DNA from: Lingula anatina
Taxonomy: Eukaryota > Animalia > Brachiopoda
DNA: 64,000 nt
NCBI GenBank assembly: GCA_051362555.1
Contig: CM120640.1
Coordinates: forward strand, 6,138,001-6,202,000
Direction: 5' to 3'
How positions within the stretch are numbered: position 1 is the stretch's first letter; every line of letters starts with the position of its first letter. The position numbers and the translations under genes were made by a program. This document shows positions 3,834-59,117 of the stretch, piece by piece. The notes under the pieces are model-generated. The model ran no database searches. It was not told the DNA's origin and saw only the letters and a program-made list of their open reading frames with translations.

Positions 3834-6151
3834 ATGGAGGCAATCTGTGGAGACTGGATGCTGTGCGGCAGTGACAACCTTACTGCCTACCTGGTCGCTC
3901 TAAGTAAGAAACGATGAATGTATACCTATCTACTTTTATTTATAAGTTCATAGCATGAAGGCAATTTGATTAATCCTCTTAGCTCATGATCAAAGCTCAA
4001 GACTATATAGTTTGCCGATGATAATATTAGACGAGCATTAACTTTTTGAGAGACGAAACAATCACCACTGTGATTAGAAAAAGTACGATTGCATAAAGCG
4101 CCTGGAGTCACTCAAGTCTGCGTTGGAATGAAAAAAAAAACAGAATTTTCTAATGTAGCAAGCTAATGCCAAACATTCTAGTAGGTCCAAGGACATTGTA
4201 TCAAACATATTTTTCGTTGTTTTAAAAATCGTTGCAAATATAATACCATTGATAAATTTTAATACCGCGAGCATAAGGAGCTGCACAGGAATCCTGTTTG
4301 TTCTGACCCCGTAAAACGCTGCATTAACTTTGTTCCGTGTTCTGCGACTGTCATTTATAAGCGCTGTCGAAACAGGATGTCATAATCAAAAAAGTCAAGT
4401 TTTGTTTTTAACCACTGGCATTCTTGTTTTTTGGATATATATAGGATGTGGCGTATGTTGAATAATCTCATATACAGACACTTTGTCAAGTTCTCTTTAT
4501 TGTTTTTGTAATTTTACTCGGGCTTGTACAAATTTATTTTGATGTTAAGACTTCCCTTTTACTAACAAATAGAAATATTCTTTCTAGGAAAAAGAACATG
4601 AGTTTTTGGTTCGTTGCCAAAATTTAATTTTCTTTTCTCCTTTTTTCTTTTTCTTTCTTCCATTCCTTTTTCTTTCTTTCTTCCTTTCTTTTTTGCTTTT
4701 TTCTTGCGTTCATTCATACTATTATTCGCAATCTACGAACCAATTCCTTAAACCATTTTTTTTTTCAACAGATGTGACAGAAGAAAATATTAAGAAGGTG
4801 ACCGATGCCCAGGAAGAGGCGTTTAAGAGCGGTGACACCCCCAAGGTCCAGATCAGCAAGGACGGGGACACGATGACCATCAAGTCACACGCCTGGGGGG
4901 ATAGAGTGACCTCAGCCAAACTTGGTGAAACATTCGAGCACACAGCAATGGACGGCAGGAAGGGAAAGGTATCTACTTTTATCACTCCATGTTAATGTTA
5001 GACTACCAGCTTTCCATACGAATCGTTAAGATACAGTGAGCTTTGAAGTAAACAAATAACCGTATTTATGTAGCCAAATGTTCAAACACGCAACAAAGCT
5101 GGAATTTTGCTCAAAAGTAAATTAAAAATTAGTTCTTCTGACTGAAAAGTGCCATTTATTAAAATGACGAAACGAAATATGAAACGAAATTACAAAATGA
5201 GGCTATAATAAAGCAACAAAAAATTATGCTATCATACGATGGAGCAGAAAAAAGTTGGCAAAGGGGAGAACAAGTGATGAGTGTTCAATTTAAAATGTTA
5301 GGCAGAATTATATTAAAACATTTGTTAAACAACGATAACGCGTTTTAACCTGCCCTTGTGCAGGGTAATCATCACATAGAGGGACGGGAACTTATCTCTG
5401 TCCTCATTGTTGTACAGATCACAGGTAGATATTATGATCTGATAATAGTGATTATGGATTTCTGCATTAATCCAGACAGAGTCATTTGATTAAAGCGTAT
5501 CAGCATGCCGACCATGTGGTATGCGAATGGATCCTTTTATCTGAAACTGTCACCGAGATGGCGAGAGGGGGATAGTGAGAGGGATGGGGTTAGGGAGGGA
5601 GATAAAAAGGACAATAGAAATGATTGCCCGAAAGTTCATCGGTCTTAATATTTATCCGGCCAGAATTTATTGATCGAGAGAGAGATGGAGAGATTCAACA
5701 TATTTCATATTGCATTTTAGCTCACCTACAGCATGGAAGGCAACACTCTCCTGGAAGTGTTTGAGGGCGAGGGCCTCATCTCAATGAACAGGAGATGGAT
5801 CCAGGAAGACAAACTGGTCTACGTAAGTATGCTTCTGTTATAATGCGCGAGAAAAAGGATTCTCTTTTAAGGATGCGACTGACTACTTCATTCTTTTGCA
5901 AATTATTTGCTGTTCCTGCGTTTATACGCTAGGGGCAGTGAAGGATTTGACCATCATTTTATCCAAATACATACGGAATCTTTGATCATACTAATGTCAG
6001 CTAAACATCGTCGAAGCTGCCTCTACTTATTTTATTTTTACTGCCAATAGAGCTTGAAATTTACCGGTATCTATTTCAAATGCTCTTTCATTCATTTCAG
6101 ACGCTGACTGCCAAAGGCATCACAACAACACGCGTGTATAAGAAGCAGTAG
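3834..6151 (+). CDS. Fatty acid-binding protein gene 2, complete, 139 aa
   Basis: Exons 3834-3903, 4772-4968, 5721-5822, 6101-6151 join in frame: MEAICGDWMLCGSDNLTAYLVAL...KLGETFEHTAMDGR...TTTRVYKKQ*. TATAAA at about 3751, AATAAA at about 6508. Confidence 0.93.
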
Positions 6152-7530
6152 TCTTTAGGCCGGTGGCTCCGACTGCATTCTCCCAGTAAATACAGGCTTG
6201 CTAAAATTGCCAGTGTTGACTGCTTTGACCCTAAAAAGGCAAACAATTGACTTCTGAACAACTTCGCTTAGAGACCCGCGTGAACCTAGAGGATGTTTGG
6301 CAATCTGTATCTTTATTACTGGAGAAACTGGGCCCTCAATGGACCCTCAAAATTAGAACTTATTTGGAGCAGCTTGATATAGTTAACGTTACAAATATCT
6401 ATGTTATCGTTGTTTTCATTGCGTAACATTTCGTATGTTTGATAGTCTATGTCTTTTTCTGTCTGTCGTCAAACTAAATGTGATACATACATAGCAAGTT
6501 TAAGGAAAATAAACTACTACAAAGAACATGATGGAGTTATTCACTTAAATATGCTTTCTCTTCATGGGGAGAAATCAGAATTGAAATATTGAATTGAAAG
6601 TAATTTGTCTAAATTAAAAGGTCTGTATTTGAATTTTATATTGTATCTTCACCAAGACAGACAGGGACAGTGATATCACCTTTTTAAAAAACACAGAGAT
6701 TCGGGCTTATAAAAACTTTATTCATACATAACTATTTCCTAAGGTATATGAGTACTTAAAATCAGCATTTATTGATAAAATGAGTGCCGGAGGGGGGGGG
6801 GAGTATTTCAATGCACTCTTCTTTACGTTGGCAGTTTGATGCATGCTTTTGCTTTGAGAAAACAGCACTGAGTCACTATTACGTCAATGTTTTTGACCCA
6901 ACTGATAATGTACCTAGGTCACAATATACAGTCTAGCCAAAAAAATTATTGAATATGGAAGTAGCAATGAAAAGAGTCCGGCAAACGACTCCGCGTTTTG
7001 CCTGCAATATGTCTGACTTGCCTTTTGTGGCCTTATAATCAGAACGGCCCTTTTCCTCCCCCAGTTTCTAAATCCAGGTTGTAAATTAAACAAGTCTTAC
7101 GATTCAGGTGATCAGCTTTTTTTTTTATAAGACAGAAATTAATCTGAAAACCGAAGCAATGTCCTTCTTGAAACTGTTTGTGTGAAAAAGGTCCGGTTTG
7201 GCACTGAGACAAGATGTAAATGATACGTATGGTTGAAGCCACGGCCTTGGCGATCCCTTTATCGATAAAGCAAAATGCCACATCGGCATTTCAATCAAGG
7301 TTGCATAACGATTTCTTCGTAAAAGGAAGATCTTGTGTGTGTTGCTACCAATTAGCATCACAAATCAACCAATCAGAGGCAAGCTTCATAAAATGCAAAA
7401 ACACAACAGTTCACAAACAGTCTATTTGATATCCCAAAAATATTTTGGATAAACTTACATTTTGAAACAAGGAAGAGTGTGAAAGAAATTAAATATCAAT
7501 TTTCAGTGCAATCCCATGTCTAGAGACCAT

Positions 7531-7540
7531 ATATATATAA
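7531..7540 (+). promoter_or_regulatory. TATA box of the polyprotein gene
   Basis: ATATATATAA about 55-60 nt upstream of ATG 7594. A CCAAT box (about 7369) and a C/EBP-like TTGCATAA (7301) lie further upstream. Confidence 0.55.
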
Positions 7541-7593
7541 CGTCGCCTGTTTCAGATAGTATCTACGTCTGATACAGCAGACTACTGTACGCG

Positions 7594-10500
7594 ATGACCG
7601 GGTTTTGGTGCATCGTCGTCTTTGGGGTGATTTTTTCACAAGTAAGAGTATATTTTTGTGAAACCTAGTTTGAAAGCAGCAATTGCCAAAGCACCATTTA
7701 GATCCAAAGAAAACATACAATTAGTGAGATCGTGCGTTACAAGTTCTAAAACGTATCATATTAGCGTTTTGACATACTTTCTGAAATATGCTTTGAAATA
7801 TTTTTACTAAATTTGCATAGAAAGGCACTTATTGATGAATGCTTAATCACACTAAACATTAACTGTTTTCTAGGGAGCATTTGGAGATGGGGTATCTGTG
7901 GAAAGGAAGTAAGTAAGGTTTAATATTTTCTACAGACAAGCTTTGAAAAAGATGATTATGAAATTATATAATCAGAGATACCATTTGTTTATACACCTTA
8001 AACTGCGTTTTTCACGGTTATTTAAAGACATTGTTGACCTCATCTTTTTATCTAGTAAACGACAGGTCAGTGTGACAAGCGAAGGTGTAAGTGTATCTCA
8101 CTCTGGCAGCTCTGGGCCGTATGATTACAGTGTCGGGGGACATGTCAACTTTAAACCCAAAAGCGTTGGTGTGCACGGTTCACTCACACGTAATTTCGAC
8201 AATGGTGGATACGTCGGTGCTAGCGGGTACAGAAATGTAGGACAGGGTGAAAGCAGTGGCGTTGGCGTCCACGGAGGGTACACCTCCCCGTCTGGTTTCA
8301 GAGTGGGTGGGGAGTTGAGACGAGACTCTAATCCTTACGGCAGTTCCACCTCAGGGAGTGCAGAATTTGGGTACGAAAGTAAAGGAGGTACCAGAGTGTC
8401 CGCTTACGGACAGAGAGACTTTCAAACTGGACACACCTCCGCTGGGCTTCGTGTCCGTATACCGTTTGGGTAAGACAGCAGTTCCATGATAATATTTGTC
8501 GCTAAAATAATGTACCAGTCGTGTGTGTGTATGGGTGTGTGTGTGTGTGTGTGTTTTTTTTACTGTGTTACGACAAGTACATTTTTAGCCGATTGCATTT
8601 GAAAAAGTAGAAAAAGCTTGAGTAGGCGATTATCAAACACTATTAGTATATATATATATTTGTTATTTGCTTGAAATAACTGTTTACAGTGCTGTAGGAT
8701 GTAAGTTATCATTATGTTCTTTTTTTGATTTATCAGGCGGAAGAAACGGGACCTGGCAGCTGAAGAAGAGGATCTGGAAGTTTTGAACAGGAGGTAAATA
8801 TGACAAATCAAAAGTTCATGGCAAACGAACATTTTGTTGGAAGAGTAATTACCACAGAAATGTGAAAGTGTAGCGCTCAATCTCAAAATTATAGTCAAAT
8901 CCTGGTCCAAAATCAGCGACTTATCTTCCAGGAAGCGCCAGACATCAGTAGACGCCCGCGCCCGTGTCAATGGAAGACGTGACTACGGTGTTGACGTGGA
9001 CGTGAACAGAAGGCATGGTAACCACCAGTACAGCGTAGGCGGCTCGTATCAACGTAGTGGTCCGTACAGAGGAACTGAGGTACGAGGAGGCTACAGCTAC
9101 ACCAACAGACGTGGCGTTCGTTTTGGCGTCGGAGGTTATCACCGCAGGGATAACTTTGGTGGCAGAGACACAGGAGTCAGGGCAGGAGTGAGCATTCCAT
9201 TTGGGTGAGTCTCTGTCATCTTACTCCTTCATTACTGTATCTTAATCATCCCACATGTAGGCCTAGACTCCGATATAATAGTACGGTATTTTGAGGCGAA
9301 TCATGAAGTAGATGTTAGTCTCTCAACGCACGTACCTGTTCCATTATTTAACATAATCCATGTAAGAATTATGGTATGCGAGGTGAGTTCACATATGACA
9401 TCGCTTAGCTTGGTGTTTCCATATGTAGGTTGAGGGAGCATTTCTAGGACCCCATTTCCAGAGATTAGATCGATCTACTTTAGATCGACCTAACTCCCTG
9501 GGGGTTCACGCTAAATAGCTGTCAGCCGTGCGGACACGAAAGTTAATTACCCCCTTACAACTTGTAGTAGGCGGGACGGACATTTAAGCCGGATTATCTG
9601 ACAGTAATCTAGTGAGACTCCCCGCGGGGATAGATCGATCTAAATGCTCTGGGAATAAAGCCTAGGAGTATAGCTGTCATATATATATGGCTGTGTGTCA
9701 GTGTGCGTGTATCAAACTGTGACGATATAAGCATTTTATACAGTGCATTTGACAAGAAAGAAAATCATTAAAAAACATTGATAAAAGTGTTTTTAAACTA
9801 GAACCTTGTTTGAAGTACAGTTTACTGTTATGGTTTGATGTCAGTTATAAATTTATTCTTTTCGGTTTAAACAGACGGAAGAGGCGAGATTTGGAAGCTG
9901 ATGAAGAGGATCTGAATGTCTTGGAAAGAAGGTAGTCTAAATATAAGGTTTGATGTTAAGAAGCCCATGTCCAAATAGGAATTTGTTAAAGCTGCGACCA
10001 TTCATTTATTAAAAATTATATTTCATAGTAGAAACAAGCGTTAATATGATTTTGTTGAATGACCTCCATGTAGTTTTTAAACGAAATAACCCTTATTAAA
10101 CAAAGAAAATTTGTTTCAAACAATTGACTTATGATAAACATAACATTGAAAAACTGCAGTAAACAGGAGCGTTTTTCGGCTTTCTTCATGGTTATTCAAA
10201 GGCACGGTTGACTTTATACATTATTATTTTTTTATCTAGTAAACGACAGAGCAGTGTAAGTGTTACTCACTCTGGCAGCTCTGGGCCGTATGATTACAGT
10301 GTCGGCGGACATGTCAACTTTAAACCCAAAAGCGTTGGTGTGCACGGTTCACTCACACGTAATTTCGACAATGGTGGCTACGTCGGTGCTAGCGGGTACA
10401 GAAATGTAGGACCGGGTGAGAGCAGCGGCGTTGGCGTCCACGGAGGGTACACCTCCCCGTCTGGTTTCAGAGTGGGTGGGGAGTTGAGACGAGACTCTAA

Positions 10501-10683
10501 TCCTTACGGAAGTTCCACCTCAGGGAGTGCAGAATTTGGATACGAAAGTAAAGGAGGTACCAGAGTGTCCGCTTACGGACAGAGGGACTTTCAAACTGGA
10601 CACACCTCCGCCGGGCTTCGTGTCCGTATACCGTTTGGGTAAGACAGCAGTTCCAAGATTTAGTTATCACGACAATTGTGAAC

Positions 10684-10719
<36 letters not shown>

Positions 10720-13699
10720 GTGTGTTTCACTGTGTTACGACAAGAACATTTTGAGCCGATTGCATTTTAAAAAGTAGAAAAAGCTGAAGTAGCCAATTAT
10801 CGAACATTATTAATTTTTTTAATTTGAACGATAAACTTGCTGGAAATAACTGTGTTTACAGTGCTGTAAGATGTAAGTTATCATTATTCTTTATTTTATT
10901 TATCAGGCGGAAGAAACGGGACCTGGCAGCTGAAGAAGATGACCTGGACGTTTTGGACAGGAGGTAAATATGACAAATCAAAAGTTCATGGCAAACGAAC
11001 ATTTTTTTGAAAGAGTAATTACCACAGACATGTAAAAGTGTAGCGCTCAATCTCAAAATTATAGTCAAATCCTGGTCCAAAAGCAGCGTCTTATCTTCCA
11101 GGAAGCGTCAGACATTAGTAGACGCCCGCGCCCATGTCAATGGAAGACGTGACTACGGTGTTGACGTGGACGTGAACAAAAGGTCTGGTAACCACCAGTA
11201 CAACGTAGGCGGCTCGTATCAGCGTAGTGGTGCGTACAGAGGAACTGAAGTACGAGGAGGCTACAGCTACACCAACAGTCGTGGCGTTCGTTTTGGCGTC
11301 GGAGGTTATCACCGCAGGGATAACTTTGGTGGCAGAGACACAGGAGTCAGGGCAGGAGTGAGCATTCCATTTGGGTGAGTCTCTGTCATCAAACTTCCAT
11401 TACTGTATCTTAATCATCCCACATGTAGGCCTAGACTCCGATATAGTACATGAAGGACGGTATTTTGAGGCGAATCATGAAGTAGAAGTTAGTATCTCAA
11501 GGCACCTGTTTCATTATTTCACATAATATGAATTATGGTATGCAAAGTGAGTTCACATGAGCTTCGTGTTTCCAAATGCAGGTTGAGAGAGCATTTCTAG
11601 GAGTATAGCTGTCACTATGGCTGTGTGTCAGTGTGCGTGTATCAAACTGTGACGATATAAGCATTTTATACAGTGCATTTGACAAGAAAGAAAATCTTTT
11701 TAAAACATTGATAAAAGTGTTTTTAAACTAGAACCTTGTTTGAAGTACAGTTTACTGTTATGATTTGATGTCAGTTATAAGTATATTCTTTTCGGTTTAA
11801 ACAGACGGAAGAAGCGAGATTTGGAAGCTGATGAAGAGGATCTGAATGTCTTGGAAAGAAGGTAGACGTAATATGAAGTTTGATGATAAGAAGCCCATGT
11901 CCAAATAGGAATTTGTTAAAGCTGCAACCATTCATTTATTAAAAATTATATTTTATAGAAGAAACAAACGTTAATATGATTTTGTTGAATGACCTCCATG
12001 TAGTTTTTAAACGAAATCACCCTTATTAAACAAAAAAAAATTTGTTTCAAACAATTGGCTTATGATAAACATAATTTTGAAAAACTGCAGTAAACAGGAG
12101 CGTTTTTCGGCGTTTTTCATGGTTATCCAAAGGCACGGTTGACCTTATACATTATCATCTTTTTATCTAGTAAACGACAGACCAGTGTGACAAGCGAAGG
12201 TGTAAGTGTATCTCACTCTGGCAGCTCTGGGCCGTATGATTACAGCGTCGGCGGACATGTCAACTTTGAACCCAAAAGCGTTGGTGTGCACGGTTCACTC
12301 ACACGCAATCTCGACAATGGTGGCTACGTCGGTGCTAGCGGGTACAGAAATGTAGGACAGGGTGAAAGCAGTGGCGTTGGCGTCCACGGAGGGTACACCT
12401 CCCCGTCTGGTTTCAGAGTGGGTGGGGAGTTGAGACGAGACTCTAATCCTTACGGAAGTTCCACCTCAGGGAGTGCAGAATTTGGATACGAAAGTAAAGG
12501 AGGTACCAGAGTGTCCGCTTACGGACAGAGGGACTTTCAAACTGGACACACCTCCGCCGGGCTTCGTGTCCGTATACCGTTTGGGTAAGACAGCAGTTCC
12601 AAGATTTTACTTGTCGCTATAATTGTGTACCCGAGTGTCTGTGTGTGTGTGTTTCACAGTGTTACGACAAGAAAATTTTGAGCCGATTGCATTTGAAAAA
12701 GTATAAAAAATGCTCTAGTAGCCAATTATTATGTAGGCCCTATGATTATATTTTTTAAAAAATTTGAACGAATTTTTGCTTGAACTTACAGCTGTGATTA
12801 CAGTGTTGTAAAATGTAAGTTATCAATATATTAATTTTTTGGATTTATCAGGCGGAAGAAACGGGATCTGGCAGCTGAAGAAGAGGATCTGGAAGTTTTG
12901 GACAGGAGGTAAATATGCAAAATCCAAATTTCATTGCCAACAGACATTTTTTTTGAAGTTGTCATTGTATATTTGTAATTATTCATTCCTCTCTTTGTTT
13001 TTGTTCAGTGACCTAGTTATTAAAACGATAAAGCTCCGGAGACACAAAAACAATTTTGTTTCAAATAAATAAACCATATTCAGAAGAAATTATAAACAAC
13101 GAGTTAACAGCCACCATTTTTTAAATATGTTTTAACGAAATATAAAGATCACGAGTCAAACCACTTCCATGTAGCACTCTTGATCTCAATCACAAAACTA
13201 TTGTCAAATCCTGGTCCAAAACCAACCTCATCTTCCAGGAAGCGTCAGACATCAGTAGACGCCCGCGTCCGTGGCACTGGAAGACGTGACTACGGTGTTG
13301 ACGTGGACGTGAACAGAAGGTCTGGTAACCACCGGTACAGCGTAGGCGGCTCGTATCAACGTAGTGGTCCGTACAGAGGAACTGAGGTACGAGGAGGCTA
13401 CAGCTACACCAACAGACGTGGCGTTCGTTTTGGCGTCGGAGGTTATCACCGCAGGGATAACTTTGGTGGCAGAGACACAGGAGTCAGGGCAGGAGTGAGC
13501 ATTCCATTTGGGTGAGTCTCTGTCATCAATTTGTATGTAACATTATCGTATGAAACTGCCTAATAATATAAACGTAGAGCAAAGTTAATTGGAAATCGAA
13601 ACAGATCTTGTTTATTTTTTCAAATTTGATTTAAGAGATCGATTACTTTATGTTCCATACATATCTTATTGATATGATTTTCATTTCAGAAAACGGTAA
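7594..13699 (+). CDS. Secreted Gly/Arg-rich polyprotein precursor (807 aa) with six convertase-released, probably amidated peptides; attacin-like antimicrobial candidate
   Basis: Exons 7594-7641, 7874-7908, 8056-8469, 8737-8793, 8932-9204, 9875-9931, 10240-10638, 10907-10963, 11102-11374, 11805-11861, 12171-12584, 12852-12908, 13239-13511, 13690-13699. All have AG/GT sites and total 2424 nt in one frame. Signal peptide MTGFWCIVVFGVIFSQGAFG; ends IPF-GKR*. AATAAA at about 14104. Gene model is strong; function is inferred. Confidence 0.88.
8040..13530 (+). repeat. Three tandem units of about 2 kb (peptide A exon, spacer exon, peptide B exon, spacer exon; last unit lacks the final spacer)
   Basis: Near-identical exons and alignable introns starting at about 8050, 10230 and 12160. 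Confidence 0.95.
9447..9662. mobile_element. MITE of the GATCGATC-containing family, in intron 5 of the polyprotein gene
   Basis: Imperfect TIRs (GGACCCCATTTCCAGAG / CTCTGGGAATAAAGCC). The paralogous intron at about 11593 has the empty site TTTCTAGGAGTA. Related copies at about 19050-19272, 32490-32730, 33923-34157 and a remnant at about 56850-56970. Confidence 0.9.
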
Positions 13700-14703
13700 T
13701 GTACTGATTTGGATAAACGACATTGCTGAGAACAAAAAGTGAACTCTGACAGAGCATTCCTGTTTCGTTAATTCAGGGACATATCTGAATCGAAATATCA
13801 AATCCCATTGGACATTTATTCCTTTTCCTTCATTGTTATCAATCTTCCCTATTTAAAACACGGTGTGATGTATCACTTAAATTGTTTGAATGCACATATA
13901 ACTGGTCATTAGCCTTCTTCACGGAGAAAATATGACACTATTATTTCATTATTTCGATAAGTTTGGATCTCAAATTTTTTGCTAGAATGATAAAAGAAAT
14001 ATGTTTGAAACCCGTAAAGAACAGCTGAATCAGGGTAAAAATAACACTGTTTAGTCACTTACTCTGTAATTTGTTACTCTTGTTGTCCGTTGTTTAACTA
14101 AAAAATAAATAAAAATGTGCATCAGAGAAAGAGAAATGTATATTATTTCATTATTTTGAAATTTGGGCTTTCTTACATACTCACTGTCACAAATCTTATG
14201 ACATGCAGTTTACAGCAATAATGATGAATGTTTAAACCATATTTAATACTACTAAGATAAAACAAAGAAATATGAATAATACTGGTAGATATAATGAATA
14301 TCATTTTAAAATGATCTGTATAATATATTTTAAGGCAAATTTTAAATAATTGGCAGTTTAAAGTGAAACGACAGTAAGACATTCTTCTTGAAATGATGGC
14401 AGCAATGAAATATTTGACTGGCAAGACATTGCTTGTGGAGTTTTAAAAATTCATGTGTTTTACTGGTCCTGTTAATGAGGAATACCTAGGACCAAATAAA
14501 TTTTAGACCCCAACTTAATCGTAGGCTTAAGACAAAGTTATACTTGATTTGTTTGTTTGTTATTTTCCAGTAACTTGTAACAGTTTTGTGCGCTCTGAAG
14601 CTATCGAGCAGTTCAATTTCCAGGTGGAGCCACAACTGATATTATCGGTTGATTAATCTTAAAACCACACTTAAAACAATCAACACTAGTCTATAGTCTA
14701 TAA

Positions 14704-19039: not shown

Positions 19040-19049
19040 CAGGACTCTA

Positions 19050-19272
19050 TGACTGCATTCCCAGATATTTAGATCGATCCATCCGGATCAACCTACATGT
19101 AACTCCCTGGGGGTTCACGCTAAATTGCTGTCAGCCGAGCGCGCACAGTAGTTAATTAGCCCCTTACAGCTTTTACTAGGCGGGACAGACATTTAAGCCT
19201 GCTAAGCTGACAATAATCTAGTGAGACTCCCCACATGGATAGATCGATCTAAAATCTGTGGCAATGGGGTCT
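19050..19272. mobile_element. GATCGATC-family MITE
   Basis: Clearly alignable with 9447-9662 along its whole length. Confidence 0.85.
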
Positions 19273-19779: not shown

Positions 19780-20595
19780 GCTTGAGCTCTGCTCGAAAGC
19801 CCTGAAGGAAGAAAGATGATGAAAAATATTTTCAGAAAAACTCCAGAAAAGTTTTAATGAAAGGGTTCAGTAAAACTCCAGAAAATAAAGTTTTTTAAAA
19901 TGAAAATTAAAATGAAATGGTTCTTGTAGAGTTCTTCAGTCAAAATGTCAAAATTTTTCTTTTTGTTAGTCGCTTCATACAATTTTACGGCTTCAGTTCG
20001 CAAACTCCCGCATAGGCATTTCTCTTCTTTTATCCCCGCCCTCTGCTCATCAACTTTCTTTTCCAGCTCAGCGTTTTTCAGCGCGAGATTGGTATTCTCT
20101 TTCATTGCTTCTCGAAGTCGTTGTGATAGCGCTGTAATTTGAAAGCTCGATTCTTTATCTTCCTTTTTGTAGGAACGGTTTTCAGTTTGACGACGTATTT
20201 GAATATTGAGGTAAATGTTCGTCGCTTTGTTGACTTCTGCTTCAGCTGCAGCAAGCTCTCTCTGGGTTCTCATGTAAGTTATCTTGAGATCTGAAAAATA
20301 AAGTTTCTTTTTTTCCGCGAAATTTCAAGCAGATTTCAGTCAACGAGTACTTTCCATCCCCAGTCACATCGGTATACCCATAAACTGAAGATGTTCAGCG
20401 GGGCTGCAACCGCGTTTGCATCTTTTCTCTTTCTCTTCATTCCTTTGAAAACTTTTTTCTTCATTAGAGCATTCTGCAATTGAATTTTTTCCAGCTTCTC
20501 TCTTTAAATGCTGCAGGTCTTCTCTTTCTTCGACGACTAGGCTTTCTTGACAACAAGATCATGCAGAGCAGCACGATGGTAATGGTAGAACAGTC
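19780..20595 (-). pseudogene. Decayed paralog of the coiled-coil membrane gene at 24898-25965
   Basis: MRTQRELAAAEAEVNKAT...AELEKKVDEQRA is almost identical to the intact copy, but there are frameshifts and deletions of the first TM segment, the N-terminus and the proximal promoter. Confidence 0.88.
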
Positions 20596-24897: not shown

Positions 24898-25965
24898 TCA
24901 GCAGGACCCTTGGCTTCTGCCCGAAAGCGCTGAAGGCAGAAAAATGACGACAAAAATTATCAGCAAAACTCCCGAAATCAAAGTTTTCATGAAATGATTC
25001 TTTTCGAGCTCTTCATTCAACACTTCAATCGTTTTCTTCATGTTAGTCTTTTCATACTCTGTCTTGCGCAATTCATCCTCCAGTTTTCCGATTTCAATTC
25101 GCGAACCCCCGTGTAGGCGTTTCTCTTCTCTTATCTCCGCCCTCTGCTCATCAACTTTCTTTTCCAGCTCAGCGTTTTTCAGCGTGAGACCAGTATTCTC
25201 TTTCATTGCTTTGTCGAGGTCGTTTTGGTATCGCTGTAATTTGAAAGCTTGATCCTTTATCATCCTATTGTAGGAACGGTTTTCAGTTTGACGAAGTTTT
25301 TGAATATTGAGGTACATGTCCGTCGCTTTGTTGACTTCTGCCTCAGCTGCAGCAAGCTCCCTCTGGGTTCTTATGTAAGTTATCTCTAGATCTGAATAGA
25401 GTTTCTCTTTTTCCGTGATTTTTTCAAGCAGTTTCCAGTCAACGAGAACCGTCCATCCCAAATGGCAAATCACTATGAACGCAAAAAGGGCGAAAACAAA
25501 TATGAAAGGCATCGGCATACCCATAAATTGAAGATGTTCGGCGGGGGCTGAAACCGCGTTTGCATCTCTTCTTTTTCTCTTTTGCCCTTTGAAAGCTTTC
25601 TTCTTCAGTTGGGCGTTCTGCTGATGAATTTTCCCATTTTCTCTCTTTAAATATTGCAGGTCTTCTTTTTCCTTGACAAGTAGGCTGTTCTCGACAACAA
25701 GGACTTCTTGCTGATCTGCCAGACGTTTGTTTTCTTCCCACTGAATGTTGTTAGTTTGGGTCAGTTGACTGATTTGAAGTTGCAGCCTAGCTATCAAAGA
25801 CGACATGTTTTTGATCATCCAGAGCAGCGCGATGGTAATGGTAGAACAGTCCTCGAGCTGCCCCTTGATGGCTTGCTTTTCATTCGACAAGCGTTCCGTT
25901 TCTTGGCGAAGTTCTAAACCTTCCCTACGCAAGCTGCTCTGGCGTTCAAATGTTGCCTGGGCCAT
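24898..25965 (-). CDS. Intronless coiled-coil protein with an internal and a C-terminal hydrophobic segment (about 355 aa), unknown function
   Basis: 379-codon ORF. Likely start is ACAACATGG at 25965, since the TATA at about 26060-26068 is too close to ATG 26037. E/K/Q/L-rich heptad-like stretches; TM-like PFIFVFALFAFIVICHLGWTVLV and TLISGVLLIIFVVIFLP. Confidence 0.8.
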   Translation of the reverse strand: MAQATFERQSSLRREGLELRQETERLSNEKQAIKGQLEDCSTITIALLWMIKNMSSLIARLQLQISQLTQTNNIQWEENKRLADQQEVLVVENSLLVKEKEDLQYLKRENGKIHQQNAQLKKKAFKGQKRKRRDANAVSAPAEHLQFMGMPMPFIFVFALFAFIVICHLGWTVLVDWKLLEKITEKEKLYSDLEITYIRTQRELAAAEAEVNKATDMYLNIQKLRQTENRSYNRMIKDQAFKLQRYQNDLDKAMKENTGLTLKNAELEKKVDEQRAEIREEKRLHGGSRIEIGKLEDELRKTEYEKTNMKKTIEVLNEELEKNHFMKTLISGVLLIIFVVIFLPSALSGRSQGSC

Positions 25966-26059
25966 GTTGTATTCAGGTTTATCCGAAATTCGAAAAAGAA
26001 CAGGGTAGATAAACTCGTAACTGCTGTCCCTCTGCATTCAAAAAGGAAAATTGTAGGGG

Positions 26060-28811: not shown

Positions 28812-31800
28812 TTATTGGAGAATGGATATGAGGGCATCAAAAAACTTGCTTTTGTCCTCCGTTTTCATCTGCATAACTGAAAAATAAAGAATGGTCATCT
28901 TATAACAAACATCAATTACTAATGAATGATTTAAGTTGTGTGAAAAAAGTACAATTTAAAAAAAAAGCAGGTTCTTTCAATAATATGATGTATACTTTAC
29001 CTGGTTCATCGAAACTGTCTTGAAGAGTTCTTGCATTTGTTCCAACTGCTGCCTGTTCAAATGCCTTGCCAAAGAAACTATAAAAAACAACGATAAATAC
29101 ATTATTTGCATTCAAAGTTACTGAAGATGACATTACACCTCAAAATCACAAACAAACATTACTCGAGTTCACTTGTTCTTCACGATAGTATTACAAAACA
29201 TATCAGTTTGCTCATTGTAAAATAGAGGAACTGCACAACTCACTTTTTCCCCACATCCTTGCTGCTGAAGGGTGGTATCCCCACAATAAGCATAGTCCCG
29301 CTTGCTACATCTAATGGAGCACCCAAGATAAGAGGCAGAGTCTTAGCTTTTCTACTTTTACTCTGAAAAGAGATTGCAAATGAGAATTCAGACCAACATG
29401 ATAAATACATACTATAATTTTTATAGATGACCGATGACCATTTGTAAAAACTGTTGTTATTAATGCAATTACATTTTTATTCAAAAGATTTATTGGTATT
29501 CAAGTTATTAAAGCAAAGCTCTATTGTTAAACATGAAAATGGGAAGGGTAGAAGAGTTACCACTGCACAGTAGGCCTCCAGTGTGAACATGGCCAAAGTT
29601 TGGAGACAGATTGGCTTGGAGAAAAACTTGGCATCAGGGGTACCCTGAGGAAAAATAATTGAGCAATTTTGAGTAACTGTATACCTCATCAAAACATGTC
29701 ATATATTAAGGCATAGATCAGGGTCATTAAATTGCTATTCTGCTTTTACACTTAATATTTTAAGAAACAAGAAAATAAGTTGACATTTTTTTTTTACATT
29801 GGGACCATATTGTTTAAATTACAGGAAGCTTGCAAACATAATTTAAAATTCAAAATAGTTTTTATAGCATAAAATTATTGGTAGAGCTTTTCACATTTTA
29901 CTACCAAAGATATGCTTAACTTCAATATATCAACTACACAGACCCTTAACTGAATTCTTATTACCTCCTGAATAAAAGCATAAAGAAATGGTCCAGCTGA
30001 AATAACTTGATTCATATCCAGGAAAGACTGCACTTGTTTGACTATTGCTGTGATCTGCTTCTTGGCTAGATTCAGTCCTTTTTCCATGTACTGAACATTG
30101 GACCTAACATGAGAAAATAACCTTGTAGATATGGTAGATTTCCACACACTGGCAGAAGGCTTATGAATATGCATATAAAATTAATTGTGTAAAGAATAAA
30201 AAGAAAAATTAATTCTTGACAATGATAGTCATGACAAGGACAAAGCATCTAGCCTAAGTAATTTCAATCCACTAATTCATAAGTTTACTCAAATCAGAAA
30301 CCTAGGTAAATATGAAATACAAGTAAAGGTAAACTTGAGGCATCATTTAAACCAAACAAATTTGCCTTAGCAAAAGATGTATAAAAAGATATTTTCTCTA
30401 TTCCACAGTCCACTTGATGCCTACCTGTTCAGAGCATCTAAAGCATCAAGGAATGTATCTGAGGCACTCTTGTCTTTGTCCTGAAAAGTAACATTATTTA
30501 CAGATTACTACAATGATAACTATGTGTTTTCTTAATTCTGGCTCTTTTATTATGAATAAATGAAACTTTTAAATAATGAGAAATTTCTAAGCAAATAATA
30601 AGAGGCCATTAGAGTGTGTACTTCTGGCCCCCGTTTCACAAAGAATCTTAAATCCGTAGCCGACTAGCTTGAGCTGGGTGGCCTAGCTAGGTCGACTTAG
30701 CTGAAGTCGACTAGGAGTGTTTCACAAAGAATCTAACGTCTTAGCTTGGCGTGCTTACCGTAGTCAACGCGCACGAGAAACTCTTCAAGAAAAGGAGGTG
30801 TAAAATTGCAAAAGTTTCACAAGACATGACGTTTCATGGCCTCTTTCGGCCGAGAACAATCGTTTATCAACAATAAAAGTCAGCCAAAACACAAACAAAG
30901 TTTGTTTTTGAACTTTACTGATTAGTTTAACTTCAATACAACTTCAAAGTAACAGTTAAACATTAGCTTGTCGTGGAACACTACTGAGGGACGTCTAGCG
31001 GTCAAAAACATAAACAAACACGCGATTGGCTGGGTAAAGTGGAATTTTATTTTTTATTTTAATATTCCATAAATGTCAGTGCTATTCAAGGATATTATAA
31101 AACAATATCTTGAAGGAGGTATGTTCTTTCCAAATTTTTGTTGTTTATGCTCTCATTTACCGAGTTTTAGTTGAGCTTGCCGACTTAAGTCTCCTCCCGA
31201 GGAGGCTTGACATCGTCGACTTACAGCTAAGAAAAAAACGACGTAAGCGACCTTTTAGTTTCTTTGTGAAACGGGACTTAGTGACGTAATGACTTAATTA
31301 CGTTGGTAACCAAGCCCTAAGTCAGGGAAACCGACTTAAGTTTTTTTGTGAAACGGGGGCCTGGGCTTGAGGCATGCTGATATAAGCCTCACCAATTTGA
31401 TGATTAAAATTGTACAACCCGTTACATTTTTTTTGTTAGCTTGTATATCTGCCTGCATCACCATATAAAATACTTTTTCCCCCTTTTCTTTTTTTAAACT
31501 TACAATGGCCTCTAGTAAGGCAGTGGCAGCATAGACAACATCTGTGGCAGAATACTTGCTCTTGTAGCCATACTGAGCTTGAAATGCTGGCTGGAAAATT
31601 TCTCTAGCTTCAATGCTAAAAAACACAAAAGCTGTATCAGTCACAAAGACAACTAATACTTAAATTTAGTAAGCATTTCACATAAAATAATCAAAAACTA
31701 ATTTTTTTCCAACTTGCTATGTATTCAGAAGTCTCAAGAGTATCAGACTTGTATCATAATAACCAAAGATGCATCACTAAGTCTAAAATGAGTAGCAACC

Positions 31801-34800
31801 TAAACAGCCCTTTTGTTGATACAATGGCAATGCAACTTTCCCCTTAATGTAAATACTTGCATTATATTAAGTTTTCTTACCCATATTTTTCAATTTTTTG
31901 TTCAATGATTGACTTGAGATCTTCCTTAAGATGAACATCCATAGCTGTGTATTTCTGCCTGCACTGGACAAGGGGTAAACTAAAAAAACAGGCATTATTA
32001 AGGATATCATTACAACACATTATGTGACATGAACACAACTTCGATTAACTTTCATGTCTAGTGCAACCTTAGAATTATTCCTCCCCAAGATCTTCCTTCC
32101 AAAAAAGAAATGAAGAAAAAAGTCATCATTTGCTCACCCTACGTCCGCCAAGAACTCATGCAGCCTTTTCTTTCCTTTCATTGTCCAAACCTTAAACCTG
32201 CATGCTGTCAGGGCCGAGTGACAGAAACTCTCAAACAGTGACCAATGCCTGTATAGTGTCAGCTGTAACTCGGGCTCAAAGGCTATCTTCAGGCAGTCCA
32301 CTGATATTGTATTTTCTTCATCTTCAGCTCTGAGACAAATACAATTGTGAAAACAACATTAAAGTTTCTTTCAATGGAAAAATAGAGAAGAACAAAAAAT
32401 GATACAACTTCTAAATGCAAACAAAACAATTAAGCCAATAATAAATGAATACACAGTATCAAGTTTTGTGTTAGTGCCACCATGATATCTTAGACTGGGT
32501 TACCATACCTAGATCGATCTATCTCCGAGGGGTTTCTCACTAAATTGCTTTCAGCTTAAGCAGCTTAGATGTCTGGTCCGCTTACTAAAGCAGCTAAATG
32601 ATAATTACCCCCTAGTGGCTTCAGTAGGCTTGAAAGACATCTAACCTGCTTAAGCTGATTGCAATTTGGCGAGAATCCCTTCGGAGATGGATTGATCCCC
32701 AGTTAGTACTATACGGTCTGGGAATGGTCCCTTAGTGCTTACCTGTGGTTGTGTCTGGAGACATGCATCTGTAAATCTGATACCATTTCAATGTACTTTT
32801 CTCTGTCTATCTTCCCATGGGCATACTGGTCTGTCACCCCCACACACGCCAGCCTACAATGTCCAATGTTTACAGCAATTCTAGGTTTCAGTTAGTAAAA
32901 ACATTGTGATTGTTTTAAATAGATGTTCTGTTAAACATACTACAGCAATTTTTGTTCCTGTTTCACTTTTTCTTTCTTTTTTTTTTAACATAGGTGTATT
33001 GAAATTTTATTTTCCTAAAACTTACCACACTAAGTCATTTGTATCTTTTGACATTTTCCACGCAAGCTCAAACATTGTTTTTGAAACCTGGAATGGAATG
33101 TATGCGATCAATCACTCAACCTCTCTATATCTATTTCTCTAATTGCTTTTAAAATATTTTGTGGCTGTCACTTGTGGTATGCATTTATGCCATATTACAG
33201 AATTCCTTAATTGCAACATATTAAAAATGTTTTAAAACTTTAAACTTTCTTGTTCTTGCTCAAACTCAAGGTGGACATAATAATAGGGACATATTGCCTT
33301 GTTATATTCCTTTATTATATAAGCTGCAACACAGAGGGTTCAATTTTTTTTAATAACAACTTAAATGGAACACTATAAATGGGAAAAAAATGTCCACTCA
33401 CGGATGTTCCATATTTTGAAAACTGCGTATACTCAAAAAGTATTTGTTTTCTGAAATATAAAAAAAGAGACATTTTCAGCTCTAGATTCAATTACAAATT
33501 CAAACAGTTATCTTTCTATGTGCAGCCAGTAGTCCTATGTCTGCAGAAGGATAATGTGTGAGATAAAATATGATACAGATTAAATTTAATAACAAATAAT
33601 AATAACTGTCAGTGCATGTTGGGACAACAATCTGGAAAAAAAAAGACAAAACTTGTGAAAAAAATCTTTATAAATACTGACTTTTTCTCCTCCCAAAGCC
33701 TCCGTTCTCGCCTTTTCTCCAGTGCAGCCTCATCAAACCTACGCCTTTTTCCAGAAGGTTCTGATGTGTCGCTCTCATTGCCTGAATCTTCATCACCAGA
33801 CTAGAGGGAAAAAAATGATATCCTTGCACTTGCATTGTTCCAGTTAATAAACAGAAAGATTTTAAAAATTTATACCATGAAAATATTTGATACCAATTAT
33901 CTTACAATGATGAAAGGAACTAAGACCCAATTCCCATACCTAGATCGATCTGACAGAATTCTCACTGTATTGCATTCAGATTAAGCGTCTCAGATGTCTG
34001 GCACGCCTACTGAAGCTGCTGAACAATAGTTAATTACCCCCTTACAGCTTCAGTAGGCATACCATACAGAGCTGCTTAAGCTGAATTTTATTTAGCAAGA
34101 AACCCTTTGGAGATGCATCTATCATGTTAGATTGATCTAGGTATGGGAACAGGGTCTCACAGTTGAGTACTTTACCCCTATAATTTTATATTCCCCATAC
34201 ACAAATACCCAAGCTGATAACCTACCTCATCCTCTCTGAACACTTCATCAAAGTCTGGGATATCATGAAGATCATCATCTGCTTGGTTCATAAGAAGTTT
34301 TACTTGCACTTGATTAAAAACATTAGTCACATCAATGGGACGGTGGCTAAAATAATAATATGGGACAGTGTACACAAACTTCACAAAGAGAAGCTCAAAT
34401 CATAATATATTTTAAAGAAGGGTGGATTAATATACTTAACATATATGAAAATTTAAAAAAAAAATTTTGAGATACCAAATTTTGGACAAAAATGTGTAGC
34501 ATCACATATGCTTTAGAGATACTCCTAATCTTAAATTAAACAACTAGTAAAACTCTCTCTATGCACATTTCTATATCTCTTACACAGTAAGATGTACTGT
34601 AGTGTAAGCAATGTCCATACCTGTCACTAATGTAAAAAACAGTTCCATTTTCTGGCTGCAGAGTTTCCACAACATCTATATTACCACCACAGCCTATCAT
34701 AACCACATGCTTAATCTGTAAGAAAACATCAGGCTTAACCTAATCAAATTAAAATGTTATGGCAGCACTCACAAACAAAATATTTGGTGAGTTATGAAAA

Positions 34801-47437: not shown

Positions 47438-49071
47438 CAGGGTTACTATATTACTTAATATGGAATATTATTTTTTGGCGAGTAAATTTTTTACAAAATA
47501 TTTATTTTTTCTCTTACTCTTTAAAATCCAAAACTGAGGTGTCACTCCATGTGTAGCCAGGTGTGGAACCTAATTACTACACAACTCTCGAAACAATTAA
47601 TGCACGCAGTTGCATGTTCTGTAGTCAATTTCTGCCCTTGGATAAAAACGCATGGGTTTGGTCAATCTTTGGAGTGTATTTAGAGAAGCAACAAAGGGAT
47701 CGCCCTGAAACTTGACAGGTACCTTAGAGAAGATATGGTTCGACAGCTATGCAACGCAGCTTACTGTGGGATTCTTGCTCTCGGAGGAAAGGGCCAGAAA
47801 CGGACAGCCATTGCCAAACAATTCAACATTTTTCAGGAACCGTTAGTAAAGTCCTCCAAAAAAATGCTACATCAGGGGCACCTACTCCAATACTTCCACC
47901 AGGTTGTCTGCGTATCACACCAAGAAGACAGGATCGCCTTCTCCTTTGAGTGCTCCGTGCTGGTCGTACAAAGACAACCAGTGTCCTCAGAAAAGAGTGG
48001 CAGAATGTCTTTCAAACGCCCGTTTCAAGGTCCCTCGTGAACAAGAGATAATTGCAAACCGGTTATTTTGCACGAAGACCAGTACGGAAACCACTGTTAA
48101 CAGCAGGTCATACACAGCGACGTCTGCAATGGGCTGGGGACCACGTGCGTTTGCAGTCAAAACACTGGAATCACGTCGTTTTCAGTGATGAGGCCAGATA
48201 TGGGATTTTTGGTGTTGACGGTCGATTCCTTGTCCGCCGACGTGTACGAGAGGCATAAAACGATTGTGTACTGCCTAGGGTGCAAGCAGGGGGTCGTAAC
48301 GTCTCTGTTTGGGGAGCCTTCCATGCCGGTGCCCAGAACCACTTGGTTTTTCTAGGAGGCAACCTCAACCAGGATTCCTACAGAGACATTCTACAGCAAA
48401 CAATGAATCGATTTGTAAGAGTCATCTTCAGGAACAACTTTGTGTGCCAAGACGACTGCGAAACGCCACATCGAGCTAGCAGAATCACTGTTTTTCTTCA
48501 AAACCAATGGGTTCAGCAACTGCCCTGGCCTGCAAACTCCCCAGAAATGAACCCAATTGAAAATCTGTGGGCGGAAGTAACTTACAGAATTAAAAGCTAT
48601 GGTCATCGTCCGGTAAATAATGATGACCCTCGACAGGCAAATATCACTGCCTGGAATGATATCCCCATCCGAACTCTAAAAAACTTGTCACAGTATATGC
48701 CATGCAGGACGAGGGCGCTGCAAGCGGTTGCTGGAGGTCATACCCGCTATTGATGGCTTTTCATGATTTACTGTAATGATTTCTTTGACTGTGTAACATA
48801 TCACTGTCCGGAGGCTATCATTTTCTTTAATATCTTAGCTTAAAGTTAATACTGACATCAAACTGTTGATATGGTTTTCGGGGGTGTTCTTTTCTTTTGA
48901 ATGACATCTTATGTCAGATTTGATATTATTGACCAAAATATCTCACAACAGACGACTTGATATTTTTATCACTCTATGAAATACTTTTTTGATGAATCAA
49001 GTCAATAAATATTTAATCAGCACTCAAAAATAACAATGATAAAAAATATTCCATATTAAGTAGTAACCCTG
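47438..49071 (+). mobile_element. Full-length but inactive Tc1 (DD34E) transposon
   Basis: TA duplication, TIR CAGGGTTACT...TAATATGGAATATT. Transposase motifs WNHVVFSDE, QDD, WPANSPEMNPIENLW and GGHTRY*, broken by frameshifts and a stop at 48256-48258. Confidence 0.93.
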
Positions 49072-58162: not shown

Positions 58163-59117
58163 TGCAAAGGTAAAAATTAGATTCTGGTAATCATTTGCTT
58201 GTTCTGTACTCTATTATTTTCTTTGGTCACAGAATTTTGATGTGTTCAAATGTATCTAAATTTATGATATATTAATTGCTATATTATCTTTCCAATATAT
58301 GCTTAACTTAGAGTGTTGATACATGTATATGAGAACAGTTACTAAGAAGTAAAATGAAAATGTTATTGACATTTTTATATAACATGTAAGCATTCTGATA
58401 GTATATGTTATGATAGCTACATGTAGTTTTTTTACTGTCATCTGCTAGATATTTAAGGGAACATTGTTTATTTATATATATACACTACGTTTGATACTGT
58501 TTACAGGTATTGTGTTAGTGTGATATTTATTCATAATGATTTCTACACAGTAAAAAACATTTGAGTTAAATTTCCTTGTTTATCAACTTTATGTAATAAA
58601 CACAGGCGCATAGCCAGTGATTTCAAGGGGGGGGGGGTCTTTTACTGAAAAAGTGGACCTTTTACCATGAAACTTTCATACATAGATAAAATTTTACCTA
58701 GAAGTGGGGTTCTTACAAACCCCCCCAAACCTCCCTGGCTACAGGCCTGAAACGTGTCGTAAAATAAAAGAATGCTTATGATTGTTTGCCAATGCAATAC
58801 AGCTAGGACTTATCAGTTGCTTCTTGAAATGACCCACAGTTTTTGCTTAAAAAACCTCTGATAAAGGTCAAGTTCTTTCTTTTGCTGATTTGACAAAAAA
58901 CAGTTGCAGAAAACCAGTCTAAGATTATTAACAGTTTATGATTATGGTAGTGGTAAGTTGCATGCCAGGAATGTCTGTCTAATGCATTCTTGGTCATCAT
59001 TTTTGCCAAGTGAAATAATGTAGAAATATCCTTGACATTTTTACTTATTTGTGATTATATGTTTATCATAAAATTTATAATATAATGCTTACGTAAACCT
59101 TTTGTCATTTCAGAACT

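Follow-up and report, generated by a model that had tools for sequence, protein, structure and literature searches.

Attacins are described as Gly-rich chains without cysteines, with an RXXR furin site and a net charge between −3 and +10 (PMC7924397). The structural model of one attacin matched porin barrels, and the attacin concerned disrupts P. aeruginosa's outer membrane (PMC10690985). In the ant Camponotus floridanus, one exon of the hymenoptaecin precursor encodes six near-identical domains and one hymenoptaecin-like domain, flanked by EAEP spacers and RR sites; it was proposed that this multipeptide precursor amplifies the response from one gene (PMC3415428). Below we compare with these systems a gene of the brachiopod Lingula anatina located at positions 7594–13699 (+ strand) of a 64,000-nt stretch of DNA (GenBank assembly GCA_051362555.1, contig CM120640.1, positions 6,138,001–6,202,000), referred to as the window. 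We somewhat favor the view that this gene encodes an attacin/hymenoptaecin-like antibacterial polyprotein.

Joining of 14 exons by coordinate produced a frame of 807 amino acids (aa) followed by a stop codon. All 13 introns have GT-AG ends; intron 1 is in phase 0 and the other 12 are in phase 2, and the length of every exon from 3 to 13 is divisible by three. An earlier reading of the locus, made from the DNA letters without database searches (the sequence-only reading), had proposed that six open reading frames ending in IPFG and a stop are exons, the apparent stops sitting in splice donors. Exon joining, with GT-AG ends at all introns, bore this out and confirmed the spliced 807-aa layout with six Cys-free peptides that start with Gln and end in IPF-Gly. 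The order of parts in the precursor is signal peptide, acidic pro-piece, A1, spacer 1, B1, spacer 2, A2, spacer 1, B2, spacer 2, A3, spacer 1, B3, Lys-Arg and stop. Peptides A1, B1, A2, B2, A3 and B3 have 135, 88, 130, 88, 135 and 88 aa and net charges of +3, +9, +4, +7, +1 and +10, respectively; each of the five acidic spacers has a net charge of −6 or −7. The lengths given in the sequence-only reading and its hand-counted charges (B1 about +9, A1 about +3, spacers −6 to −7) agree with the computed values. Its description of the peptides as Gly/Arg-rich stands for Gly (∼20% in the peptides) and, as regards Arg, for B only (18% in B1 versus 7% in A1); the isoelectric points are 9.4 for A1 and 11.0 for B1. 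Eleven R-x-K/R-R sites were found, all at peptide/spacer borders and none inside A1 or B1. Spacers of types 1 and 2 are 75% identical at the DNA level.

RNA evidence was taken from six of nine sequencing runs found by species label, with 6–30% of each run read; the whole locus was mapped with runs X1, X4, X7 and X9, and one repeat unit with runs X2, X4, X5 and X9. Read ends pile up at 7575–7577 (X4, X7 and X9), which gives the approximate transcript start and a 5′ untranslated region (UTR) at 7575–7593, the first ATG thereafter being at 7594. A TATA-like box, presumably functional, is situated 35–45 bases upstream of these ends (7530–7540). Exon 1 (7594–7641) encodes the first 16 residues of a predicted signal peptide, with its hydrophobic core (hydropathy up to 3.3); exon 2 (7874–7908) encodes the end of the signal peptide, likely cut after residue 20, a short acidic pro-piece and the start of the first furin site. 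Peptide A1 (8063–8467), a predicted 10-strand beta-meander, is carried by exon 3 (8056–8469) and peptide B1 (8939–9202), a predicted six-strand beta-meander, by exon 5 (8932–9204), as indicated by exon joining, RNA and models. The intervening exon 4 (8737–8793; exon joining and an RNA junction class) is a spacer of type 1, composed of a furin site, an acidic 13-mer and the start of the next site. Exon joining and repeat comparison placed a type 2 spacer in exon 6 (9875–9931) and a type 1 spacer in exon 8 (10907–10963); exon joining and RNA placed A2 (10247–10636, with an N-terminus five residues shorter) in exon 7 (10240–10638) and B2 (11109–11372) in exon 9 (11102–11374). Further downstream, RNA joints lead from exon 10 (11805–11861, spacer type 2, also seen by exon joining) to 12171, from exon 11 (12171–12584, A3 at 12178–12582) to 12852, from exon 12 (12852–12908, spacer type 1) to 13239 and from exon 13 (13239–13511, B3 at 13246–13509) to 13690. 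The coding part of exon 14 (13690–13699) completes the Gly codon and adds nothing but Lys-Arg and stop, so that the last peptide keeps its amidation signal. The 3′ UTR (13700–14130) has AATAAA at 14104, after which read ends cluster near 14127, the likely main 3′ end; lower depth continues to 14300.

Mapping to the whole locus detected joints 7641 to 7874, 7908 to 8056, 12583 to 12851, 12906 to 13237 and 13510 to 13689 (the last one in four runs); mapping to the repeat unit added joint 11859 to 12169. Among the joints listed, at least six of the 13 introns (1, 2, 10, 11, 12 and 13) were confirmed at their own coordinates. The remaining seven repeat junction classes found at another copy or as cross-copy joints, because reads from other animals, mostly 90–99% alike, map to the nearest copy. 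All seven junction classes are present in the reads, the B-to-spacer-2 class only as cross-copy joints among those listed. Stranded runs X4 and X5 showed transcription of the + strand. In X4, X7 and X9 depth falls on exons and not on introns, where it is near zero save at one repeat; X1 has no exon depth across the locus. The gene is thus real and spliced; the six-module order itself is read from DNA, with RNA support junction by junction. Expression on the repeat unit varied from 0.5 reads per million in X2 to 39 in X5, 1,519 in X4 and 4,656 in X9, reaching at its peak 0.47% of all reads in one run. This range fits that expected for a tissue-specific or inducible effector.

Over 7300–14300, reads of X4, X5, X7 and X9 show a divergence of up to 10% or more relative to the window sequence. 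The divergence is greatest in X7 and X9 and includes the signal peptide and the 3′ UTR; it could stem from alleles that have diverged, from a paralog or from cryptic species that share a label. In X5, loose read ends on both sides of 13258–13263 (6 and 10 reads) suggest an insertion within a B exon in that animal.

The hidden secreted polyprotein of the sequence-only reading is supported, as to its spliced secreted layout, by both sequence and RNA; cleavage and amidation are read from motifs. The motifs make the following processing scheme highly probable. With the signal peptide removed after about residue 20, furin would cut at the 11 R-x-K/R-R sites and a carboxypeptidase would trim the basic residues; PAM would then convert the Gly-ended peptides to Phe-amides and glutaminyl cyclase the N-terminal Gln to pyroglutamate. 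The six resulting peptides would be capped at both ends and so protected from exopeptidases, while the acidic spacers would balance the positive charge of the peptides on their way through the secretory pathway. Mass spectrometry has confirmed modifications of this kind in neuropeptides of a nemertean (PMC8557429), not in the protein described here. The count of six peptides holds for this allele under furin-only cutting; other animals have other module orders.

Among known designs, that of the ant multipeptide hymenoptaecin precursor comes closest by analogy. Both have a signal peptide and a pro-piece followed by tandem Gly-rich domains with spacers and basic sites. Compared by description only, the brachiopod gene differs in that it alternates two domain types, each domain and each spacer having its own phase-2 exon, and in that it uses acidic 13-mer spacers between full furin sites, with a Gly amidation signal on each unit (PMC3415428); EAEP-type spacers, RR sites and one-exon repeats were not found in it. 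With attacins, gloverins and diptericins (PF03769, PF10793; PMC7924397, PMC10690985) it shares Cys-free, Gly-rich chains in a similar charge range. These chains are flanked by RXXR sites in a pre-pro-protein, release by furin being predicted, and they are predicted to form an amphipathic antiparallel beta-sheet that matches porin barrels (PMC10690985). However, the insect precursor is described as yielding one mature chain of ∼190 aa, while the Lingula precursor would yield six chains of 88–135 aa, and no hidden Markov model (HMM) match was obtained. We file the gene in neither family, as the profile test failed and both spacer type and exon structure differ. From both systems it is further set apart by phylum, two alternating modules, an exon per module or spacer, the amidation signal on each unit and varied module order. 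Apidaecins are short and Pro-rich, whereas the Lingula peptides are long, Gly-rich and predicted to form beta-sheets. Still, the honeybee apidaecin precursor also has repeated peptide units on separate exons, which allows splice and copy variation (PMC3415428).

Word and profile searches of protein databases revealed a single relative, LOC106155895 (XP_013386378.1), an uncharacterized 186-aa NCBI model from Lingula anatina that is itself a singleton. Identical to A3 at 118 of 120 positions, it spans spacer 1 together with the greater part of one A and half of B; we take it to be this gene itself or a copy very close to it. Because the truncated model begins within A, breaks off within B and has neither the signal peptide nor five of the six complete units, the precursor design cannot be seen in it. 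The word search among longer proteins confirmed none of 830 candidates for A1 and one of 162, this same model, for B1; the six-peptide alignment search of proteins of near length likewise yielded it as the only one of 623. A profile search of 1.84 billion representatives gave 12 matches, one of which is LOC106155895. We discarded the remaining 11 because they added up matches to one short motif of repeat proteins of bacterial type (SprB was the best Pfam family in seven of the 11, and the type IX secretion domain CHU_C occurred in three). None of 121 pattern matches in a metagenome scan was confirmed. As far as the searched protein databases reach, sequence comparison makes the gene a brachiopod orphan, found only in Lingula.

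The sequence-only reading had held that a strong match to a characterized family would overturn it; Pfam, NCBIfam and sequence searches of PDB returned none. In PDB nothing was found for A1 or B1, and the profile gave one match with E-value 0.93. Hymenoptaecin did not surface in the word searches or in the 1.84-billion profile search, no direct pairwise or profile–profile comparison having been made. YadA_anchor (PF03895), the one weak signal to recur, matched the C-terminal part of all three B copies through its last 23–31 profile positions (E 0.047–0.39), with scores of 11–14 bits lying below the cut-off of 22.7. A horizontally acquired bacterial outer-membrane protein found no support as an origin, as sequence searches gave no homology to an outer-membrane-protein family (the YadA_anchor match is sub-threshold, NCBIfam gave none, and the 11 profile matches outside Lingula are the repeat proteins named above). 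We found no description of this gene in the literature covered, which leaves out most subscription journals. A Gly-rich Lingula sequence once filed as an achatin, g6587, is a different protein. The proposal of an undescribed family thus holds in so far as there is no family match and the protein databases searched contain only a 186-aa fragment; the multipeptide design as such is known from ants (PMC3415428).

AlphaFold2 models of A1 and B1 were made from single sequences, with no alignment behind them. The A1 model is an antiparallel meander of ten strands (predicted local distance difference test, pLDDT, 89 for the best model and 63, 45, 38 and 37 for the others), and the B1 model an antiparallel meander of six strands (83, 80, 49, 42 and 37). 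Independently of the models, two-residue hydrophobic alternation exceeds that in all of 2000 shuffles for both A1 (z 4.3) and B1 (z 5.0). Of the fold comparisons suggested earlier, Foldseek found nothing at E ≤ 0.001 for either peptide, whereas VIA-align ranked porin-type membrane beta-barrels on top: FhaC (Z 13.2, root-mean-square deviation 3.7 over 130), OmpU (12.3) and PapC (12.2) for A1, and Mdm10 (9.3), BtuB (9.2) and TamA (9.0) for B1. These matches to predicted models show a curved sheet, neither homology nor function. The nearest named clusters in the ESM Atlas are those of attacin and gloverin, which for A1 take rank 1 (Attacin_C, 0.93, 175 features) and rank 2 (gloverin) and for B1 rank 5 and rank 4, with scores across A1 and B1 of 0.93–0.94. 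A prediction of the A1 + B1 complex reached 0.31 versus a mark of 0.34, in a run without controls. A side search of the BFVD viral fold library with B1 had as its best match a 99-aa unnamed Faunusvirus protein (E 0.004, template modeling score 0.65).

An attacin-like effector fits the data because composition, furin motifs, predicted fold, Atlas neighbors, expression range and faster change of B agree. The antibacterial action itself is the least certain part of the mechanism: cationic B may bind lipopolysaccharide, and sheets or oligomeric barrels formed by A and B at the bacterial envelope may permeabilize it or disturb the assembly of outer-membrane proteins. The symmetrical phase-2 cassettes would let the dose and the A:B ratio shift by duplication, deletion or skipping. 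The attacin/diptericin-like character proposed by the sequence-only reading gains modest support from composition, predicted amphipathic beta-meanders, porin-barrel fold matches and weak Atlas neighbors, and none from sequence homology.

Several observations weigh against the antibacterial reading. Sequence searches revealed no family, attacin and gloverin included, to which the peptides are homologous: Attacin_C, Attacin_N and Gloverin were listed by Pfam for none of the six peptides at E ≤ 10, and NCBIfam had no family match for them; since HMMER filters drop most matches above ∼0.1, remote kinship may still exist. The fold evidence is diffuse, with pLDDT of 70 reached by one of five A1 and two of five B1 models, no Foldseek match at the threshold given above, and VIA-align scores forming a plateau (4–21% identity for A1) that takes in non-membrane sheets, lipovitellin for one, as well as a pigment protein from an insect. 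The Atlas matches are weak, their recognition values (1605 and 1772) being under the 2300 level, and the top three for B1 are hypothetical, unnamed giant-virus proteins of 70–72 aa (0.94), apparently small beta-meander proteins of the B1 type. In B, three inner strands are without a hydrophobic face (mean hydropathy −1.1 to 0.1), unlike a membrane-spanning barrel, so B resembles a cationic surface-binding sheet more than a membrane-spanning one. Peptide A is barely cationic (A1 +3, A2 +4, A3 +1), the four internal RR pairs of B1 are open to other convertases, and a scan of 2 kb upstream for kB-like sites found none versus 0.2–0.5 expected. Finally, the pN/pS ratio of B discussed below fits relaxed as well as diversifying selection, the copies being few and non-independent.

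A narrower proposal, which we regard as improbable, is that the peptides are porin-fragment mimics ending in a strand like the beta-signal, acting as decoys for the beta-barrel assembly machinery (BAM) or being built into defective barrels. With bacterial outer-membrane barrels and the YadA anchor they share a predicted antiparallel meander, alternating hydrophobics and a C-terminal Phe; the chains are, however, too short or too polar to make up a complete barrel on their own, and their gene is an animal one rich in introns. Besides its terminal Phe, each of the six peptides carries hydrophobic residues at −9, −7, −5 and −3. The beta-signal consensus is polar-x-G-x-x-hydrophobic-x-aromatic; all three B copies fit it (0.3% of shuffles do; the test was post hoc). 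Ten plus six strands would equal a 16-strand porin, and the exon cassettes would tune the module mix. Against such mimicry are Pro at −2 and the predicted amide, which would replace the terminal carboxylate, as well as the A:B ratio observed in other animals, which is not 1:1. If it were true, an attacin-type weapon would exist outside insects, and the peptides would offer a tractable model of attacin action.

The main rival of the antibacterial reading is a structural role, which we consider unlikely rather than negligible: furin would free beta-sheet units rich in Gly, Tyr and Val, and these would assemble by themselves or attach to chitin, whether in setae, the periostracum, the cuticle of the pedicle, burrow mucus or an egg coat, with acidic spacers blocking early assembly. 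Very high, sample-restricted expression and amphipathic strands rich in Gly, Ser, Val and Tyr suit this role, and the Lingula shell is an apatite–chitin composite with Gly-rich matrix proteins (PMC13425148). The R&R chitin-binding domain is among the fold matches of B1 (Z 7.0, rank 40 of the best 50), though at background Z, and Pfam gave no chitin-binding match (Chitin_bind_4). The VRGGYSY stretch of B resembles, as we presume, the R&R motif. The pairing of pyroglutamate with amide signals, repeated in each unit, is characteristic of bioactive peptides and tells against this role. We searched the available portions of four supplements (PMC8557429, PMC4595640, PMC13425148 and PMC6425005) for signature strings. 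The 54 shell proteins of Lingula listed in supplement S1 of PMC13425148 do not include XP_013386378.1, the strings are absent from the searched portions of two Lingula shell-proteome supplements (the gene models searched in those studies may lack the full gene), and the Gly-rich shell proteins are collagens according to the 2015 supplement. A structural role in shell, cuticle or egg coat, by which the sequence-only reading would have fallen, is weakened by these absences and retained as a rival.

Two further functions would use the same secretory route. In a neuroendocrine or pheromone precursor, to which we give a slim chance, PC1/PC2-type convertases would also cut at internal RR pairs to release short receptor-acting peptides; B, for example, would give an amidated 11-mer from its N-terminus and, from its C-terminus, an 18-mer ending in IPF-amide. 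Neuropeptide precursors are marked by features present here as well, namely a signal peptide, basic sites, Gly amidation signals, an N-terminal Gln and acidic spacers; B1 has RR at residues 13, 24, 57 and 69, with Gly just before the pair at 13, and the last 31 residues of B are invariant among its three copies. The units share the IPF-Gly end, but are 88–135 aa long unless the internal RR pairs are used. A contains just one RR and shows purifying selection over its whole length, one RR pair is lost in B2 and the beta periodicity runs across both peptides, all of which are at odds with short products. Up to 0.47% of a run's reads is, in our judgment, very high for a neuropeptide, and no IPF-amide strings occur in the searched portions of text and supplements of two lophotrochozoan neuropeptide surveys. 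A published brachiopod screen would have missed this layout, since its de novo step required amidation sites 2–25 residues apart (PMC8557429). No more probable is a membrane-active secretion directed at eukaryotes (anti-fouling, anti-predator, anti-parasite or a gamete-coat lysin) made by the same processing. The toxin-like precursor layout with acidic spacers, the predicted barrel-fragment fold, faster amino-acid change in B and restricted expression are compatible with it, but no solved structure was matched by sequence, the nearest feature neighbors are antibacterial insect families and the B sheet is poorly hydrophobic.

The module order varies between animals. Among the joints listed, X9 has 2,303 B-to-spacer-1 joints versus 2,827 B-to-end joints (a rough ratio), and its depths are in a proportion of about 2 A : 3 B : 1 UTR; a form containing two A and three B, with B-B neighbors, would account for this. 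The B-to-spacer-1 class is present in X7 too. In X4, 366 A-to-spacer-2 and 74 spacer-1-to-A joints indicate A-A neighbors, with no B-to-spacer-1 joint among those listed. These B-B and A-A orders in reads from other animals are new here. Since every cassette is of phase 2-2, they could arise through gain or loss in the genome, through the skipping of exons or from a paralog.

Exon copies within the array are 93–98% identical and intron copies 79–96% over aligned parts; with copies so much alike, the array is a recent tandem expansion or has been homogenized. No copies besides the six were detected by tblastn in the 64-kb window. The A copies differ by 10 synonymous and three non-synonymous changes and the B copies by two and 11, respectively (Fisher p 0.005, for three non-independent copies); pN/pS is 0.04–0.24 for A and ∼1.3–1.6, where defined, for B. 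All 11 variable positions of B are within residues 3–57, ahead of the invariant C-terminal part. Between A and B there is no significant similarity (BLASTP, E ∼0.05); shared motifs and exon phase make their common ancestry likely. A miniature inverted-repeat transposable element (MITE)-like insertion at 9448–9660 (inverted repeat 9465/9643), not part of the product, is present in intron 5 (670 bases) only. The paralogous intron 9 (430 bases) is without the element, which was therefore gained or lost after the duplication. Further copies of it lie in the window at 19046–19265 (81% identical) and 32510–32587 (78% identical); in the RNA of X1, X4, X7 and X9 this family is plentiful.

Other features were seen in the window. 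Upstream of the gene there are fatty-acid-binding-protein-like exons at about 4773–4969, 5732–5823 and 6102–6152 (+ strand), with a Pfam Lipocalin match below the cut-off (E 0.066). An uninterrupted frame at 59097–64000 (+ strand), at least 1,634 codons long, encodes a DEAH11-like RNA helicase that has RRM, KH and RING-like parts and continues beyond the window. On the − strand, a CDC45 exon is located at 31339–31659 (Pfam E 4e-7) and a 379-codon coiled-coil frame with two hydrophobic stretches, for which no Pfam family was above the cut-off, at 24898–26037; a shorter related copy of this frame lies 5 kb away (19854–20324, − strand). Fragmented frames at 47684–48753 (+ strand) presumably resemble a Tc1/mariner transposase.

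If the peptides are antibacterial, the attacin-type Gly-rich beta-sheet design, described from insects in the papers cited, would reach a lophotrochozoan, which would imply deep homology or convergence and provide new Cys-free peptides aimed at the Gram-negative envelope. Two-module exon cassettes whose order varies between animals make a clean case of effector dose and diversity being set by exon shuffling. Protein-based surveys would miss the gene, since the databases searched hold only the 186-aa fragment without a signal peptide. Whatever its function, a gene that gives up to 0.47% of the reads of one run is nearly absent from the protein databases searched.

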